The notes beneath the pieces were generated by a model, which made no database searches, had not been told where the DNA came from, and saw only the letters and a program-made list of their open reading frames with translations. The translations under genes and the position numbers were made by a program. A DNA stretch of 64,000 bases from Cyanobacteria bacterium P01_A01_bin.123 (GTDB taxonomy: Bacteria > Cyanobacteriota > Cyanobacteriia > Phormidesmidales > Phormidesmidaceae): NCBI GenBank assembly GCA_039815185.1, contig JBCBZT010000015.1, forward strand, positions 64,001 through 128,000, given 5' to 3'. This document shows, in pieces, positions 16,205 to 44,995 of this stretch. How positions within the stretch are numbered: position 1 is the first letter of the stretch; each line of letters begins with the position of its first letter.

Positions 16205-17545
16205 ATGTCTCCAGTTATTCCCCTCCAGTTTGTCAACGCCGAAGATCTCAAACAACAACCCGATACTGTACGCCTTTGGGCCAGCACTGCTGGCTTCAAG
16301 GCTGACCCCGGCAGCCACTGCCTGGTGCCTGATAGTCAAGGTGCAATCGCAACTGTATTAGTTGGCACTCCTGCCGCATTGGATACTTGGACGTTAGGGA
16401 AACTAGCCCAAAGCTTGCCGCCCAATCGTTATACCTTAAGCGTAGATCTCGATGGCGAAACCGCTACCAAGTTGTGCCTCGGCTGGCAATTGGGGCAGTA
16501 TCGATTCACTAAGTATAAAAATGGCTCAAGTGCGTTACCAGAATTGGTATTTCCGGCTGGGGTAGACGATGCTTACGTTCAAGCCTCAGTAACCGCTACT
16601 ACCCTTGTCCGCGATCTGATCAATACGCCCGTCAATGACATGGGGCCAGACCAGCTCGAAGCTGCTGCCCAAACCCTGGCCCAGCAGTACCAAGCCGCTA
16701 TTCAGGTCACTGTGGACGAGGCACTCCTAGCCCAAAACTACCCGATGATTCACGCCGTAGGTCGCGCCAATGACCAACCCCCGCGCTTAATCGACCTGCT
16801 TTGGGGTGACCCCAATCACCCCAAAGTTACCCTAGTCGGCAAGGGGGTGTGCTTCGACACGGGCGGACTCAATATTAAGAACAGCAGCGGTATGAAGCTG
16901 ATGAAAAAAGATATGGGCGGAGCCGCTCAGGTCTTAGGCTTAGCCAGCTTAATCATGCAGATGCAGCTACCTGTACAGCTACGCGTGTTGATTCCCGCTG
17001 TAGAGAACAGCATTACGAATAATGCCATACGTCCCTCAGATATATTGCCGTCGCGTAAAGGCGTCACCATAGAAATTGGCAACACTGACGCCGAAGGCCG
17101 CTTGGTGTTAGCTGATGCCCTATGGGAAGCCGTGAGCGACCCCCCTGATCTGCTGATTGACTGTGCGACCCTGACAGGTGCTGCCCGTGTTGCCCTAGGC
17201 GCTGAACTCCCCGCCTTCTTCTGCAACCATGGGCCAACGGCTGAAGCCCTTAAAGCGGTTGGAGAGGCTTGCGACGATCCATTATGGCAACTGCCACTGC
17301 ACGCCCCTTATCGAGAAATGCTCTCAAGCAAAATCGCCGATCTCAATAATATTTCCAATACCTCCTACGGTGGCTCGATTACGGCAGCACTGTTCTTACA
17401 GGAATTTGTCAAACCAGACGTCCCCTGGATTCACATCGACTTCATGGCCTGGAACCTGCGTGCCCTGCCCGGACGTCCCGAAGGCGGTGATGCTATGGGT
17501 ATGCGGGCATTGTTTGCATTGATTCGAGATCAAGTAGTGGGTTAG
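16205..17545 (+). CDS. Leucyl aminopeptidase (M17)
   Basis: VGKGVCFDTGG, MKKDMGG and NTDAEGRL. Confidence 0.95.
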   Translation: MSPVIPLQFVNAEDLKQQPDTVRLWASTAGFKADPGSHCLVPDSQGAIATVLVGTPAALDTWTLGKLAQSLPPNRYTLSVDLDGETATKLCLGWQLGQYRFTKYKNGSSALPELVFPAGVDDAYVQASVTATTLVRDLINTPVNDMGPDQLEAAAQTLAQQYQAAIQVTVDEALLAQNYPMIHAVGRANDQPPRLIDLLWGDPNHPKVTLVGKGVCFDTGGLNIKNSSGMKLMKKDMGGAAQVLGLASLIMQMQLPVQLRVLIPAVENSITNNAIRPSDILPSRKGVTIEIGNTDAEGRLVLADALWEAVSDPPDLLIDCATLTGAARVALGAELPAFFCNHGPTAEALKAVGEACDDPLWQLPLHAPYREMLSSKIADLNNISNTSYGGSITAALFLQEFVKPDVPWIHIDFMAWNLRALPGRPEGGDAMGMRALFALIRDQVVG

Positions 17546-19665
17546 GACTCCTGCCCAAACCACTTTTGGTAAATTTCGTCATACTGTTCGGTTTCAAAAA
17601 GTTTTAGCAGGCTGGCGTTAATTACTTCTCGATAGTCGCTATCTTGGGCCATGGCAATGCCGTAGCTAAGTTCTTTGTGAAACACAGGGCCAACGACTTT
17701 GACTTTACCTTGACCGTCGTGGGCGGCATAGTGCTGAAGCACAGGGGCATCGTAGACTACAGCATCAAATTGGTTATCAATTAGCCCTTGAAACACTTCT
17801 TCTTGGGTCGCATAGTCGCGAAAAAACAGTCCGGGTTGGCGGGCTAAGTAGTCGGCAGCGGCGCTGTTGGCGATCGTGGCGATGCGTTTACCGGGTAAAT
17901 CTCCTGGGCCGCGAATGTTGCCTTGGAGTTCTTGCACGGTGAAGGAGCTGGCAATGGTCGCCGTGAAGTAAGCGAGCACAAAATAACCAAAAAACATCCA
18001 TAACAATCCAAAAACGCGGCCCAATGCCCGTTGGGGTACCTTGTCGCCATAGCCCACGGTGGTTACGGTTACCGCAGCCCACCAAAAGGCTTCCCAAATA
18101 CCGGATAGGTAACGGCTAGGAAACTGGGCATTGTGGCGATGTTCCGACAGCCATAAAATATGGGCCACCCCCAGCAAAATGAAGACTAAAATGCCGATCC
18201 CGTAATACAATCTGGGCGATCGCAGGACAGCAATCACCACACCAAAGACTTCGGTTAAGGCCGTATCACCCTGGCTAGAGACCAAAACCTGTAACCCCGA
18301 CTCAAAGAACGCATGGGAAAAATCTAGGGATTCTTCTCCATAGGAGGTAATGCCAATCCCTGCCACGGCTAGGTCGGCGGCCCCCCGCTCGACGTCGTCG
18401 AGCATTTTGGCCAGGGAGTTAACCCCCACAAGCTCATAGGTGATGTTGAGATCGGCCGCGATCGCTTTCCAGAGGTCAATACTAAAACCGCTGTAATCTT
18501 GACTTTGATAAGTGACAAAGGGCTCAAACTGCTTCGTCACAACCCTCAGGGTCTGACCTTCATAGGGGGAAGTTGTGGGTTCAGGGTCCGGAACTGCCGC
18601 AGACGAGGGAGGGCTGGTCTCGGCAATTTCCTGAGCAATCGCCAACCAAGGATCAACGCGATCGCGGTTAGCCGCAATCCACTGACGGGCATGGTCGCGA
18701 ATATCAGCTTTAGAATCTTCTCCTGAGAGCATTTTGGCGTTTTGGCTGGTGATCTCCGCTAGGGGAATTTCAATCTGTTCCAATAGCGCTCGCACTGCCG
18801 GGTTAGTCTGCAGGAAGGCACGATTAGCTACGGCTCGAATGTCGTTGGGCGGAAACCCCATGGCGCAGGGATCAGCCACACAACCCGGCACCCCTGGCAC
18901 GACCGTTTCACTCTCTAAAGATTTTTGAGCCACAGGCAGACTCGGAAAAGGCACCTCCAACCACACCACATCTTGCCCCGGCACCAGCTGACTAATAGTC
19001 CAGTTGGGTGTCCAGGAATAAAACAGCATGGATTCCCCCTGGCGATAGCGATCAATGGCGTTTTTTAGCATGGGGGTATAGTCGCCGTGGAGATGCTCAA
19101 CCGTTTCGGTTAACCCGTAGGCGTCCAAATGCTGATCGATGATCTCGGCGCAGCTCCAGTCCTGGTTGCAGCCGATTAGATCTGCCTTGCGATCGCCGTC
19201 ACGGTCAAACTGCTTGGCAATATCGGGATCAGCCAAATCCTCTAAATTGCGGATGTTGAACTGATCTGCTGTGGTCTTGTCGATTAAGTATCCCTGGAGT
19301 GCTCCCCCAGGAACCTCAAACCCCACCACCTCGACCTGATCCGCAATGTCATCGCGGTTGAGAAAGCTGTTATGAGATGGAAACCAGCCGTTGGCCCACA
19401 GATCGACCTCGCCTTCAGCAACAGCAGTGTAAAACGCTTCATTGTCTAAGGTGCGTGGTTCACTCACGCTGTAGCCCAACTCTTGCAGTAAGGCCCGAAA
19501 GATCTCTGTTTGAAACCAGCCCGTATCCCAAGTGGGTCTGGCAATGTTGATCGGGGATGCTGCCTTTACCTCAGATACTGCTGATAGGCTCAATAGCCAA
19601 GCCAGAGCCAAGCCCAACAACACCCATCCCAAAGCTTTGAATCGAGATCCCATGATCAACCACAT
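17542..19665 (-). CDS. Fusion: ProX-like glycine betaine-binding domain + GluR0-type ligand-gated K+ channel
   Basis: Signal peptide, then the ProX motifs WFPSH, LIGCNQDWSC and YSWTPNW, a Pro/Ser linker, the S1 lobe, a TM, the pore WWAAVTVTTVGYGD, a second TM, and the S2 lobe ending YQKWFG. Confidence 0.88.
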   Translation of the reverse strand: MWLIMGSRFKALGWVLLGLALAWLLSLSAVSEVKAASPINIARPTWDTGWFQTEIFRALLQELGYSVSEPRTLDNEAFYTAVAEGEVDLWANGWFPSHNSFLNRDDIADQVEVVGFEVPGGALQGYLIDKTTADQFNIRNLEDLADPDIAKQFDRDGDRKADLIGCNQDWSCAEIIDQHLDAYGLTETVEHLHGDYTPMLKNAIDRYRQGESMLFYSWTPNWTISQLVPGQDVVWLEVPFPSLPVAQKSLESETVVPGVPGCVADPCAMGFPPNDIRAVANRAFLQTNPAVRALLEQIEIPLAEITSQNAKMLSGEDSKADIRDHARQWIAANRDRVDPWLAIAQEIAETSPPSSAAVPDPEPTTSPYEGQTLRVVTKQFEPFVTYQSQDYSGFSIDLWKAIAADLNITYELVGVNSLAKMLDDVERGAADLAVAGIGITSYGEESLDFSHAFFESGLQVLVSSQGDTALTEVFGVVIAVLRSPRLYYGIGILVFILLGVAHILWLSEHRHNAQFPSRYLSGIWEAFWWAAVTVTTVGYGDKVPQRALGRVFGLLWMFFGYFVLAYFTATIASSFTVQELQGNIRGPGDLPGKRIATIANSAAADYLARQPGLFFRDYATQEEVFQGLIDNQFDAVVYDAPVLQHYAAHDGQGKVKVVGPVFHKELSYGIAMAQDSDYREVINASLLKLFETEQYDEIYQKWFGQES

Positions 19666-19689: not shown

Positions 19690-19792
19690 TAGCGCTAACT
19701 AGATTGCTGCATCCACCGAGGATCGCTAAAGGTCTTAGTCTACAAGCAATCTAGCTCGCAGTCGCGCACAAAGGTTGGTGGCGACTGCTATA
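19690..19792 (-). mobile_element. ~105-bp MITE-like repeat, copy 3 (diverged)
   Basis: TAGCGCTAACTAGATTGCT...AAGCAATCTAGCTCGCAGTCGCGCACAAAGGTTGGTGGCGACTGCTATA. Confidence 0.7.
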
Positions 19793-19838
19793 GCTTAAGG
19801 GAAAACGATAAATCTAGATGTCATCAAAACTATTTCAC

Positions 19839-40880: not shown

Positions 40881-41786
40881 TTACAGTAATCCCTGCTCCT
40901 CTAGAAATTCGCGAGCCACTTCATCCGGTTCACGACCATTGCCAGCCACCTCCCAATTGAGGGTGCTCATGGTTTCATCGTCAAGGAGGACTGTGACGCT
41001 GTTCAGCACCTCAGCAATTTCAGGGTTAGCATCTAGCGTTTCCTGACGAATAAAGGGTGCAACTGGATAGGGAGGCCAGAATTTCTGGTCGTCTTCGAGC
41101 ACCAACAGGTCAAACGCGGCAATTTGGCCGTCGGTGCCATAGCCCGTGGTGACATCGATATCGCCAGTATCCAGACCGCTGTAAAGTAGACCGGGGTCTA
41201 GAGACTTAACCTCAGCAAAGTCAAAACCGCCATAGGTTTCTTTGAGCGCAGGTAACCCATCGCTACGGTCGGCAAATTCTAAGTCAGTGCCAAAAATTAG
41301 ACCACTGGCGTTTGCAGAAATATCACTAACGGTAGTTACCCCCAATTCATTGGCGCGATCTTTGGTCATCACCAGCGCATAAGTATTGTTGAAAGAGGTC
41401 GGATCTAGCAAAACAACGCTGAACTGCTCGACATAGTCAGCTTTGACCTTGTCATACACATCCATCGTAGACATTGCCGGATCATAGGTTTGTTCTAGAT
41501 GTACCAGTAAGGCCGTGCCAGTATATTCAGGATACAGGTCGATTTCACCCGCAATTAGGGCTGCATGGTTTTCGCTAGTGCCGCCAAGGGCATTGTAATC
41601 AGCGTTGTAGCCCGCGTTGTCGAGCACCATTTCAAACATGTGGCCTAGCAGATACTGCTCGGTAAATTCTTTTGAGCCAATTTTGATCTCAGGACCATCT
41701 GATGAGGAACCCCCGCTACAAGCAGATAGAGCCACCGTCAACAGAAGAGCTGTGCTGGTTAGAAGGGTTCGTCTTTGAAACTGCAT
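40881..41786 (-). CDS. Osmoprotectant (betaine/choline) ABC substrate-binding lipoprotein
   Basis: Lipobox LSAC, GSKEFTEQ, YPEYTGT, FNNTYAL and FWPPY (OpuBC/OsmF type). Confidence 0.92.
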   Translation of the reverse strand: MQFQRRTLLTSTALLLTVALSACSGGSSSDGPEIKIGSKEFTEQYLLGHMFEMVLDNAGYNADYNALGGTSENHAALIAGEIDLYPEYTGTALLVHLEQTYDPAMSTMDVYDKVKADYVEQFSVVLLDPTSFNNTYALVMTKDRANELGVTTVSDISANASGLIFGTDLEFADRSDGLPALKETYGGFDFAEVKSLDPGLLYSGLDTGDIDVTTGYGTDGQIAAFDLLVLEDDQKFWPPYPVAPFIRQETLDANPEIAEVLNSVTVLLDDETMSTLNWEVAGNGREPDEVAREFLEEQGLL

Positions 41787-41841
41787 AATCGATGCCTCTT
41801 GAAAAATAGTTTATGGATAGGGAGGGGACAGGGATGGGGGA

Positions 41842-42936
41842 TTAAGGTGCCGCTGCTGTCCGCAATTTTGCAACATTTGCAGTAGCGCGGAAATGATAGT
41901 AACTGATGATCAGTTCAATACCCGTAATCACTGCGATACTCAGAACTGCCCCAATTAACCAAACAAGGCCTAATGAAGGCGTTTGCTGAATCTTTGTGGT
42001 TAGCCCAAACACCAGCCAAACAAAAGCTGCCGCAGCTGTGCCAAAAGTGATCAGTGTAATCGGCCAAGCGTTGCCACTTTCCCCTCGACGGGGCCACAGC
42101 GTGGCTACTAAGCCCAGCACCAGAACTGGGAGCCCTATAGTCCGATACTCAGCGTGTAGTCCGGTGAGCACGACTGGGTCACTGCCAGCGACAGCCTGGG
42201 TTTCCCAGGGGAGGAGGACGCCAAATAACAGCGGCATTGCTGCTACAACGCATAGTAAGCCAATTAGGCCACCGGCCTTGCGCTGAGAGGTACCAATCTT
42301 TAAACCCTTGGGAGTCACCCAAGTCTCTAGCCGACCAAAGGCTTCTTCAAAGTAGAAAGCTAAGATTGTTGCTGGAATGGCCCCCAGCAGCATCACGTGG
42401 TCACGGTTGAGCTGATGGCCTCGTAAAATCAAGTCGCCCAGCCCACCAGCCCCAATAAATCCGCCAAAGGTGGTGCTGGCGACAATGACCACGGCTGAGG
42501 TGCGAATGCCCGCCATAATCACCGCGATCGCGACTGGCAGCTCTACCTTAAATAAGACCTCAATGTCGCGCATGCCCATGCCTCGGGCCGCTTCTTTCAT
42601 ATTGGCATCAACTTGCTCAATGCCGATCAGGGTGTTGATCAACACTGGCAGCGTGCCGATAAACGTCAGCGCCAAAATGGTGGGTGGGCGACCAATGCCT
42701 AGCAGCGGCAAGGCTAGCGCCAGCACCGCCAAAGTGGGAAACGTATTGCCAATTTTGCCCGCGTTGAGCAAAAACTTTCGCAACCAGCCTACCCGCGACC
42801 CCAGAATGCCAAATAAGACGCCCAGGGTCACCGCGATCGCCAGTGCTGTAAAGGTAATTTGCAAATGCTGACTTAGGGCAGTCGTAAAGTCTTGAGAGCG
42901 TTCGATGAAATACGCCCACATGTCTTGAAATAGCAT
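41842..42936 (-). CDS. Osmoprotectant ABC permease with extra C-terminal membrane domain
   Basis: EAA motif KEAARGMGM and GAGGLG, followed by a hydrophobic extension. Confidence 0.88.
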   Translation of the reverse strand: MLFQDMWAYFIERSQDFTTALSQHLQITFTALAIAVTLGVLFGILGSRVGWLRKFLLNAGKIGNTFPTLAVLALALPLLGIGRPPTILALTFIGTLPVLINTLIGIEQVDANMKEAARGMGMRDIEVLFKVELPVAIAVIMAGIRTSAVVIVASTTFGGFIGAGGLGDLILRGHQLNRDHVMLLGAIPATILAFYFEEAFGRLETWVTPKGLKIGTSQRKAGGLIGLLCVVAAMPLLFGVLLPWETQAVAGSDPVVLTGLHAEYRTIGLPVLVLGLVATLWPRRGESGNAWPITLITFGTAAAAFVWLVFGLTTKIQQTPSLGLVWLIGAVLSIAVITGIELIISYYHFRATANVAKLRTAAAP

Positions 42937-42982
42937 CCAACCCCCAATAGAAATTCCAGTCAAAATTGCGATAGATGAATGC

Positions 42983-43672
42983 CTACCCTTGGGTGGCACC
43001 CGGCAAAGACCGCTCAATCTTGCCAATGACAAAGTCAAAAAACACAGCTAGCAACGCTGCCCCGAGTGCCCCAGCCACCACTTTGTCGTTACGTCCGCCG
43101 CCTGCCGCAATCCCTTCAAAAATCAGCTTGCCAAGGCTGCTGGCCCCAAAATAAGAGGCCAGGGTGGCGAGACTGATGGTGGAGACCACGGCAATGCGAA
43201 TACCGGCAAAGATGACCGGCAGTGCTAATGGTAATTCCACTTGCAGCAAAATGCTCCGCTGGGTCATGCCCATCCCCCGCGCTGCTTCGATAATGGCCGG
43301 ATCAACGCCGTCGATGCCCACTGCCGTATTGCGAATGATTGCCAGTAGGGAATAAACGGTGAGGGCGATAACGGCTGGCGTAAAGCCAATCCCCACGATG
43401 GGAATCATCAACCCAAACATCGCCAAACTGGGTACGGTGTAGAGCATCCCTGCCAGCTTGATCACGGGGTCATAGAGCAGCCGCAGGCGGGTAATCAGCA
43501 CCCCTAGCGGCAGGCTAATCAGCACTGAAAAAAACAGGGTCACAAACGTAATGAGCAGATGACCCCATAAAAATTCCAGCACCCGATCTGGGCGACCGAC
43601 CCCTGGCAAATAGTACAGGACACCGTCCTTCAAGCTGATCAGGAATTCCCCTAGATTGGTAATAAAATCCAT
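42983..43672 (-). CDS. Osmoprotectant ABC permease
   Basis: YTVPSLA, IEAARGMGM and VELPLALPVIFAGIR. Confidence 0.9.
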   Translation of the reverse strand: MDFITNLGEFLISLKDGVLYYLPGVGRPDRVLEFLWGHLLITFVTLFFSVLISLPLGVLITRLRLLYDPVIKLAGMLYTVPSLAMFGLMIPIVGIGFTPAVIALTVYSLLAIIRNTAVGIDGVDPAIIEAARGMGMTQRSILLQVELPLALPVIFAGIRIAVVSTISLATLASYFGASSLGKLIFEGIAAGGGRNDKVVAGALGAALLAVFFDFVIGKIERSLPGATQG

Positions 43673-43682
43673 GCTGCTCCTC

Positions 43683-44810
43683 CTAGCGTCCCGTTGGCAT
43701 CGGTTGGGTTTCAGCAATTAATGCCTGGGCATTTTCAACGGTGACCAGACCGAGCAATCGCTGGTGGGGATCAACCACAGGTAGGTAGCGAATGCCGTAG
43801 CTCAGCATCATGGAGAAAGCATCTTTCATAGTGGCTTCTGCTTCGGTGGTAGAAACCAGATGATGCAGCATTGCCTTAGCCTGCTTGCCAGGATGGGTTT
43901 GGGCCTCTTCGAGCCCCACATACCCAGCCAGTCGGTTGGTCTCGTCTGTAATGAACAGGCTATCGACATTATGCGATCGCATTTTGGCTGCCAAATCTGC
44001 CCCACTGTCATTGACGTTGCCCAACAGTGGCGCTTGCTGCATGACCTCACCCACGCGGACTAGGGTTAGCCGCTTGAGACCACGGTCTGCGCCAACAAAG
44101 TCGGCGACAAAGTCATCCGCAGGTCTGGACAGAATATTGGCTGGGGTATCGAGCTGGGCTAGCACTCCCCCAACCTGCAAAATGCAAACGAGCGTCCCCA
44201 TTTTGAGCGCCTCGTCAATATCGTGGGTGACAAACATGATGGTCTTCTTGAGCTGTTTTTGCAGTCGCAAAAACTCATTTTGTAGGCGATCGCGCGTAAT
44301 CGGATCAATCGCCCCAAAGGGTTCATCCATCAGCATGACGGGCGGATCTGCTGCCAATGCCCGTGCCACCCCGACCCGCTGCCGCTGCCCCCCGGATAGC
44401 TGCTTGGGATAGCGATCCCGAAACTGAGCCGGATCCAGCCCCACAATGTCTAGCAGCTCATCGGCCCGTCGATCAATTTTGGCTTTGTTCCAGCCGAGGA
44501 GTTTGGGTACCACGGCAATATTGTCGCGGATGGTGAAGTGAGGGAACAGGCCAATTTGCTGAATGACGTAACCGATACTGCGTCGGAGTTCGACCTGATT
44601 TTGCTTGAGCACATTGCGCCCGCCTACAAAAATCTCACCGCTGGTGGGCTCGATCAGGCGGTTGACCATTTTCATCGTGGTGGTCTTGCCACAACCAGAC
44701 GGCCCAATCACCACGCAGGTCTCACCTTCCGGCACAGACATGGTTAAGTGGCTGACCGAAGGCTGGCTAGCCCCAGCGTAAACCTTAACCACATCATTAA
44801 ACTGAATCAT
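43683..44810 (-). CDS. Osmoprotectant ABC ATPase with CBS pair
   Basis: GPSGCGKTT, LSGGQRQR and MDEPFGAID, with a C-terminal CBS pair. Confidence 0.93.
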   Translation of the reverse strand: MIQFNDVVKVYAGASQPSVSHLTMSVPEGETCVVIGPSGCGKTTTMKMVNRLIEPTSGEIFVGGRNVLKQNQVELRRSIGYVIQQIGLFPHFTIRDNIAVVPKLLGWNKAKIDRRADELLDIVGLDPAQFRDRYPKQLSGGQRQRVGVARALAADPPVMLMDEPFGAIDPITRDRLQNEFLRLQKQLKKTIMFVTHDIDEALKMGTLVCILQVGGVLAQLDTPANILSRPADDFVADFVGADRGLKRLTLVRVGEVMQQAPLLGNVNDSGADLAAKMRSHNVDSLFITDETNRLAGYVGLEEAQTHPGKQAKAMLHHLVSTTEAEATMKDAFSMMLSYGIRYLPVVDPHQRLLGLVTVENAQALIAETQPMPTGR

Positions 44811-44995
44811 CGGGATCAAAATGAATTTCCTCTGTTAGCAACAGGGAGTAGGGCATGACGCTGATACAGCGTCAATGCTTCACAGGAAAACGGTATTTTT
44901 TTGTCCCAGGTTCTACTCCAAGGAATATTGTTTCCAACATTCCAGCAATTTATCGCTGTTTCCAGCATTCTTAGAGATTGGTTAACAACCCTCTG

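Follow-up and report, generated by a model that had tools for sequence, protein, structure and literature searches.

Prokaryotic ionotropic glutamate receptors (iGluRs) of the GluR0 type, represented by GluR0 of Synechocystis (slr1257; 1ii5/1iit), by the homologue whose ligand core is 2pyy and by Group 1 of Ger et al. 2010, are built in the order S1-M1-pore-M2-S2, where S1 and S2 are the two halves of a ligand-binding clamshell, and they have a K+ selectivity filter, an aspartate in S2 and no M4 helix; they form tetramers whose K+ current is gated by amino acids. The S1 arginine and the S2 aspartate have been described as totally conserved across prokaryotic iGluRs (Ger et al. 2010, PMC2950845). 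GluR0 lacks an N-terminal domain, and that domain is treated in reviews as a eukaryotic addition (PMC11479355). Eukaryotic iGluRs (AMPA, NMDA, delta and plant GLR) have two tandem extracellular clamshells above an inverted K+-channel-like pore, with an outer domain of the LIVBP type (ANF_receptor), an M4 helix and a cytoplasmic tail; their outer domains pair into dimers that organise the tetramer. ProX of the ProU type is a free or lipid-anchored betaine-binding protein that goes with ProV and ProW. The gene studied here lies in a 64,000-nucleotide stretch of Cyanobacteria bacterium P01_A01_bin.123 (contig JBCBZT010000015.1, positions 64,001 to 128,000), hereafter the window, and encodes a protein in which a ProX domain precedes a complete GluR0-type channel. 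From its sequence, its relatives and structure prediction, the best reading is that of a tethered binding protein that gates or co-gates a K+ pore upon betaine binding, and not that of a scaffold like the amino-terminal domain (ATD) of eukaryotic receptors.

A ProX domain joined to a GluR0-type channel

The gene occupies positions 17542..19665 on the minus strand, as do all the parts of it given below, and its single open frame encodes a ProX-fused GluR0-type K+ channel of 707 residues (703 from the second Met; the public gene call, P0002, begins 4 codons downstream of the start of the longest frame and has 703 residues). A previous sequence-only reading had described a leader, a ProX domain, a linker and the S1-M1-TVGYGD-M2-S2 arrangement in this frame, and Pfam, NCBIfam, PDB matches and AlphaFold2 agree with this layout; the hydrophobic leader (residues 1–35, 19561..19665; model helix 2–28) was judged by eye to be a likely Sec signal peptide. 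The ProX/OpuAC betaine-binding-type domain covers residues 36–348 (18622..19560); Pfam OpuAC matches residues 38–331 (E 8e-51), the NCBIfam ProX equivalog NF008334 gives 366 bits (cut-off 215), and E. coli ProX (1r9l) is a top PDB sequence match (E 2e-68), with 41% identity over 291 residues. No Pfam match to ANF_receptor, the LIVBP-type domain, was found in the fusion protein. A flexible linker rich in P, S and T follows (residues 349–369, 18559..18621), with low pLDDT and a mean identity of 13% among homologues; its length, taken between W340 and R374, varies from 29 to 43 residues in 119 proteins.

The channel part begins with the S1 half of the inner clamshell (residues 370–466, 18268..18558, from Pfam, PDB match and alignment), and continues with the transmembrane helix M1 (484–508, 18142..18216), the pore helix and K+ selectivity filter (519–541, 18043..18111, with TVGYGD at 536–541), the inner helix M2, equivalent to M3 of eukaryotic iGluRs (547–582, 17920..18027, with the gate-like motif YFTATIA), and the S2 half (583–706, 17548..17919) that carries the conserved Asp639 and after which no M4 is found. 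Within this part Pfam recognizes SBP_bac_3 (375–705) and Ion_trans_2 (520–575), Lig_chan and Lig_chan-Glu_bd also match, and 2pyy is the other top PDB sequence match (E 3e-42). The filter TVGYG is kept in 119/119 homologues. An AlphaFold2 model built from 125 sequences (pLDDT 86, pTM 0.71) shows the leader helix, ProX, a disordered linker, S1, M1, pore helix, M2 and S2 in that order, without M4, and a Foldseek search with it returned 1r9l first, followed by structures of the ligand-binding and transmembrane domains of AMPA and NMDA receptors.

The fusion is real and conserved. The best 120 of 819 matches (8000 candidates scored), the protein itself included, all have one and the same set of domains, so that the layout is common to the 119 best homologues; besides, contigs of two other sequencing runs from two studies (X2 and X5) cover the entire gene unbroken. 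An assembly artefact was rejected on these grounds, and the presence of the fusion in relatives, on which the sequence-only reading had staked its proposal, was borne out. One of the other-run contigs shows 90 differences in 2701 bases (approx. 3% divergence), and the sole indel in the gene, a 9-base insertion in the linker in run X5, is in-frame. Among 67 genome loci, 51 have the fusion, 10 only ProX and 5 only the channel, and the last one is a cut piece. The 51 fusion loci span four phyla, with 28 (two split ones included) in Desulfobacterota, Chloroflexota and Acidimicrobiales and 23 in cyanobacteria (one frameshifted). Over all the material, split or frameshifted copies exist in L015, L061, L063, L092 and P0151. 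In the window's own family the fusion was found in 13/140 genomes, all within two genera.

P0151 is the sole unfused channel that has the docking motif described below, and it sits 9 bases behind an OpuAC gene and a BCCT transporter gene. It was considered as a natural two-gene version and rejected: P0151 is a split fusion, since it starts with the final helix of ProX, lacks a leader and has a frame continuous with that of the upstream gene. A scan of metagenome contigs using P0151 gave 54 loci, i.e., 46 one-frame fusions, 1 split by a stop and 7 cut by contig ends, and a two-gene form with a free binding protein was found in 0/54. Among the 16 longer matches of the best 150 representatives, OpuAC was the only extra N-terminal domain seen on GluR0-like channels. 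Some tandem arrangements were also observed. P0170 (1008 residues) has two ProX domains and a channel, and the next gene (689 residues, probably P0145) has one; P0170 and P0145 have SREGWG instead of the K+ filter and lack the S2 aspartate, a gene for a cNMP-binding protein lies upstream, and the tandem paralogues possibly form a heteromeric, non-K+ channel. L035, L041 and L062, all from Chloroflexaceae, have two or three ProX domains in tandem, and L041 adjoins proV/proW-like genes.

With respect to its origin, a FastTree phylogeny of the channel part (183 rows) places all 52 fused rows, together with 10 unfused ones, in a single branch of 62 rows (local support 97), and the fused/unfused label requires 5 changes on this tree, at least 3 of them forced by the starred branches. 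In the corresponding ProX tree, whose 89 rows sample half of the stand-alone rows and a fifth of the close fused ones, the 43 fused rows group together on one side of a split (support 90) within a subfamily of stand-alone ProX proteins. Both trees are quick ones with long branches and do not amount to a formal test of single origin; the simplest reading of them is a single fusion followed by some losses, so that the fusion probably arose once. Five channels from Coleofasciculus, Geitlerinema and Phormidium (L038, L042, L060, L064 and L065) are nested in the fused clade and have neither ProX nor the docking motif; these are likely secondary losses. The outer domain has no relation to its LIVBP-type counterpart in eukaryotic iGluRs, since there is no ANF_receptor match, and its independence from that counterpart, which had been proposed from the sequence, is supported by the position of the fused rows in the ProX tree.

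The two clamshells and their predicted contact

The cage tryptophans that had been recognized by their contexts (NGWFPSH, 92–98; GCNQDWSC, 165–172; YSWTPNW, 216–222) are in the positions expected from E. coli ProX: W94, W170 and W218, together with H98, align with W86, W161, W209 and H90 of its precursor, and the Cys pair C166/C172 aligns as well. The roles of these residues in the cage and at the carboxylate site follow from the work on 1r9l. A fourth tryptophan, W46, which had gone unremarked, aligns with a Trp of OpuAC-type proteins and is also present in 86/86 stand-alone relatives. The four tryptophans and H98 are invariant in 117/117 close fused homologues. The C262-C267 loop was considered as a fusion-specific trait and rejected, given its presence in 83/86 stand-alone relatives; W46 and this loop, both absent from E. 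coli ProX, are common to the subfamily, fused or not. Aromatic cages of this type bind fully methylated head groups (PMC6207618), and the ProX domain of the fusion likely binds a betaine, either glycine betaine or proline betaine.

The inner clamshell departs from the known prokaryotic receptors in a residue that had also been overlooked. Gly443 (18337..18339) occupies the position of the S1 arginine, the residue for the alpha-carboxyl group of the ligand, and aligns with the Arg of 2pyy and of GlnH; a sequencing error was rejected, since Gly is found in 22 homologues and the codon in run X5 differs only silently, at its third position. Among 119 homologues this residue is Arg in 94, Gly in 22 and Ala in 3, and the arginine is kept in 27/27 aligned non-cyanobacterial loci. 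In the tree the Arg-less rows belong to a cyanobacterial branch of 19 rows, of which 14 lack the arginine and 5 have it, and, because Arg-bearing rows are mixed into it, one loss with regain and repeated losses both fit. Asp639 of S2, the residue for the alpha-amino group, is kept in 118/119 homologues, and the amino-binding Ser/Thr position 438 is Gly in 86/119. The complete amino-acid signature (S/T438, R443, S/T602 and D/E639) is found in 98/126 unfused representatives, in 3/13 fused representatives and in 31/119 close fused homologues; the protein under study keeps one of the four residues, Asp639. Position 602 may act via its backbone. The filter, gate, cage and docking motif are all intact in the Arg-less clade. 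Judged by its residues, the inner clamshell of this protein is not a normal GluR0 amino-acid site. Compared with GluR0, the fusion has an added ProX domain of 310 residues, Gly for the S1 arginine and a helix motif of its own; it is a GluR0-type variant and not a plain member, because it departs from the family in two features, the S1 arginine and the absence of an N-terminal domain. Of the earlier assignment as a GluR0-type channel, the layout, the filter and the S2 aspartate hold and the usual amino-acid site does not.

A two-chain complex prediction with residues 36–350 and 368–706 gave a score of 0.72, whereas the best of 3 controls scored 0.00; 116/157 solved complexes and 2/215 mismatched pairs reach the mark for this score, counts that are only a rough guide when a custom alignment of fused proteins is used. 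At least 91% of contacts are common to the runs, and the pLDDT of the partners is at least 88. As a prediction, this speaks for binding between the two parts and is short of a demonstration. In the predicted interface, clamshell residues 379, 386–389, 414–429 and 600 face ProX residues 47–50, 72 and 312–322 on the one hand, and 156 and 192–202 on the other. By the domain borders of ProX, these two groups lie on opposite lobes at the mouth of the cleft. The ProX contact residues flank the cage residue Trp46. ProX is thus predicted to dock across the lip of the inner clamshell, on helix 414–429 (18379..18426), with contacts to both lobes, at the cleft mouth and beside Trp46, as would be expected for a partner that reads the closure of ProX. 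This predicted position does not agree with the suggestion, made from the sequence, of a top layer comparable to an ATD. A solved ProX-clamshell complex was found neither in the PDB sequence search nor among the Foldseek matches.

Fusion-specific positions are concentrated in this interface. Fusion-specific positions account for 9/212 in the clamshell, and 7 of these 9 lie within the 17-residue predicted interface; on the ProX side they are 4/13 at the interface versus 24/308. The core motif formed by A419, K420, D423 and R427 is complete in 127/131 fused proteins and in 1/126 unfused channels, and at an equal clustering of 50% it is complete in 9/13 fused representatives versus the same 1/126.

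Gene neighbours and betaine metabolism

A BCCT betaine transporter gene lies within 6 kb in 22/28 non-cyanobacterial fusion loci (confirmed by Pfam in 22/22), and 4 of the 6 loci without it are at contig ends; among the metagenome loci, with flanks of 4 kb, 17/54 show one. In Desulfobacterota a separate OpuAC-type binding protein is encoded beside the fusion in 12 loci (L007-L011, L014, L015, L017, L028, L063, L066 and L067), forming a run of BCCT, OpuAC-type protein and fusion with no ABC permease or ATPase gene in it; this raises the possibility of a BCCT assisted by a binding protein. Genes for a proline dehydrogenase, a mandelate-racemase-family enzyme and an ornithine-cyclodeaminase-family enzyme are recurrent neighbours in 2–3 loci each, and glycine-cleavage genes are among the neighbours in Acidimicrobiales.

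The host genome has one BCCT gene, on another contig, whose product is 63–65% identical to those of the Chloroflexota neighbours. It belongs to a cluster (G000:C94:46588-57421, L077) with genes for a Rieske oxygenase, flavoproteins resembling dimethylglycine dehydrogenase and sarcosine oxidase, a serine dehydratase, an EamA protein and a GntR regulator; only the serine dehydratase and the BCCT exceed fitting cut-offs, and the cluster is likely devoted to the catabolism of betaine or of an N-methylated amino acid. BCCT genes are present in 11/13 fusion-bearing genomes of the family versus 39/127 others (50/140 in total), with the fusion carriers belonging to two genera. The window also encodes, 21 kb from the fusion (40881-44819, minus strand), a betaine-type ABC operon for a complete Osm/OpuC-type importer with an ATPase, two permeases and an OsmF-like binding lipoprotein; the Osm-type binding protein of the host genome was missed by tblastn with the ProX domain and was found by a profile search. 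Two full ggpS copies above the cut-off were detected in the host genome (G000:C115:50818-52275 and C113:36511-37971); the contamination of the assembly is 5.99% and one copy may be foreign. A coupling of betaine sensing to salt acclimation had been proposed from the sequence. The betaine link of the fusion is well supported by the gene neighbours, but salt acclimation is only one option and is not singled out over nutrient use, because the neighbours in the relatives and the host BCCT cluster look equally like betaine uptake and catabolism.

The immediate neighbours of the fusion gene encode an M17 peptidase and a Usp protein, with no proV or proW adjoining. The GC content around the gene is even, about 0.51, and rbcL, rbcX and rbcS-like frames, recognized by eye, lie at 4–6 kb, as in a cyanobacterial contig. 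The stop of the fusion gene overlaps that of the convergent M17 aminopeptidase gene (17528-17546), where run X2 has a 19-base duplication. Directly upstream of the gene (19690-19795) there is a dispersed repeat of approx. 105 bases, with about 110 copies in the genome at 70–80% identity, that folds into two hairpins (z -2.8) and resembles a MITE or REP element; the first start codon is overlapped by another, shorter repeat, of which there are about 18 copies. Rfam gave no match in the region upstream of the gene, this repeat of approx. 105 bases included, and a promoter and terminator scan at the gene gave no signals above those of shuffled sequence. No RNA data set with the gene was listed, which weighs neither for nor against its expression.

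Proposed control of the pore by ProX and alternative explanations

From the loss of the arginine and the predicted docking of ProX, it is likely that betaine rather than glutamate controls the flow of K+ through this channel. The binding of betaine would close ProX; the closed domain, with both lobes touching helix 414–429, would stabilize closure of the inner clamshell, and this would pull on the M2-S2 linker and open the pore of the tetramer, as happens in GluR0. An amino acid may act as co-agonist in those relatives that have retained the arginine, and in the Arg-less lineage it could perhaps have become dispensable. The K+ flux would serve either as an electrical signal or to balance ions while betaine is taken up, with a direction that depends on the membrane potential. 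We lean, by a small margin over doubt, towards this chain of events in its general form, in which betaine closes the tethered ProX and ProX, docked on the clamshell lip, favours closure and opening of the K+ pore, alone or with an amino-acid co-agonist. The stricter form, in which betaine-loaded ProX is itself a protein agonist that clamps an inner clamshell that no longer senses amino acids, is put forward tentatively. If it were true, this would be the first prokaryotic betaine-gated ion channel and a second independent origin of a two-clamshell receptor, in which, in a single lineage, the outer domain took over the sensing role of the inner one.

The alternative that we consider unlikely, yet ahead of the others, is that the real agonist is an amino acid, or some other small ligand, bound by the inner clamshell and that ProX only tunes gating or desensitization, as the N-terminal domain of NMDA receptors does. 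The retention of the S1 arginine in most homologues and in all the aligned non-cyanobacterial loci, the near-invariant Asp639 and the five Arg-bearing rows nested in the Arg-less clade agree with it; yet the protein under study and, in all, 25/119 homologues lack the arginine with filter, gate and cage intact, and position 438 has so often changed to Gly. It is improbable that ProX is a permanently docked cap or brake, where empty ProX holds the channel shut or open and the ligand releases it or plays no part: the interface is indeed predicted with confidence without a ligand in the model, and its residues are strongly conserved, but a mere scaffold would have no use for an invariant cage of four Trp and His98, and the contacts reach both lobes at the mouth of the cleft, an arrangement from which sensing of closure would be expected. 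Still less probable is a channel that serves as a membrane anchor for a binding protein feeding a neighbouring BCCT or ABC transporter, with the two halves independent of each other. The BCCT genes beside the non-cyanobacterial fusions and their frequency in the fusion-bearing genomes of the family, which come from two genera, could be read in this way; against it, the 12 Desulfobacterota loci already have a separate OpuAC-type protein, the betaine-type ABC operon of the host has its own binding protein, and the cleft face of ProX is predicted to be occupied by the clamshell helix. Finally, the loss of the arginine, the restriction of the fusion to few genomes of the family and the split or frameshifted copies are what a decaying relic would show in this cyanobacterial lineage, its inner clamshell no longer gating; nevertheless, the frame is open in strains up to approx. 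3% divergent, with that single in-frame indel, and the conserved elements of the Arg-less clade are in place, so we regard decay as very unlikely.

Several observations weigh against control of the pore by betaine-loaded ProX. Both Arg and Asp are retained in 93/119 close homologues, so the family as a whole has not given up amino acids, one of which may still act as the principal agonist in most members. The three-Trp cage is incomplete in 5/12 distant fused representatives, and the docking motif is lost in 3/13 fused representatives; P0122, P0123, P0125 and the metagenome locus L115, all of them kin, have lost the motif and have a complete amino-acid signature. The halves of a single chain tend to pass complex prediction, and the enrichment of the motif is not independent of the docking prediction, because both share the alignment of fused proteins; likewise, counts of fused proteins are not independent draws, because these proteins are one clade of close kin. 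The interface, predicted for a monomer, is silent on access in the tetramer, on ligand dependence and on whether the pore is opened or closed. Besides, a BCCT gene was found near the fusion in 0/23 cyanobacterial loci, many of them on short contigs, nor does one stand beside it in the window.

Liganded periplasmic binding proteins that dock on a membrane receptor and switch it are known from LuxP-LuxQ, TorT-TorS and MBP-Tar, where the binding protein is free and the outputs are kinases or chemoreceptors; in the fusion the output would be a channel and the binding protein is tethered. The fusion resembles eukaryotic iGluRs in its two tandem clamshells above the pore, and differs in having a class II ProX as outer domain, the predicted docking on the lip and an end after S2. 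Nematode betaine-gated Cys-loop channels, e.g., DEG-3/DES-2, would share betaine as the ligand, but they are pentameric, of an unrelated fold and found in animals. An engineered ectoine-binding protein, EhuB, can gate the GluR0 pore (bioRxiv 10.1101/2021.01.27.428399), so that, as in the proposal made here, a compatible-solute binding protein controls that pore; this chimera is artificial and EhuB replaces the clamshell, whereas in the natural fusion ProX precedes a retained clamshell. OpuAC domains also occur on eukaryotic 7tm_3 receptors (PMC3971589). Full-text searches of the CC-licensed PMC and bioRxiv literature gave no paper on a ProX-channel fusion, four text supplements of PMC2950845 contain no betaine, ProX or OpuAC term, and the databases name the fused proteins simply ProX. 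The ProX-GluR0 fusion is apparently undescribed in print, and the Gly in place of the S1 arginine and the predicted docking of ProX on a fusion-specific helix motif are new here.

The fusion family allows one to address how iGluRs gained a second clamshell and what the first role of this domain was. As a bacterial model it is small, its outer domain is of another kind and its predicted interface is defined, and nature offers variants that have or lack the arginine, the motif or the domain, so that the coupling is directly testable. The same proteins are a possible scaffold for channel sensors gated by binding proteins. For the marine bacteria that carry it, the fusion would provide a ligand-gated K+ conductance tied to betaine.

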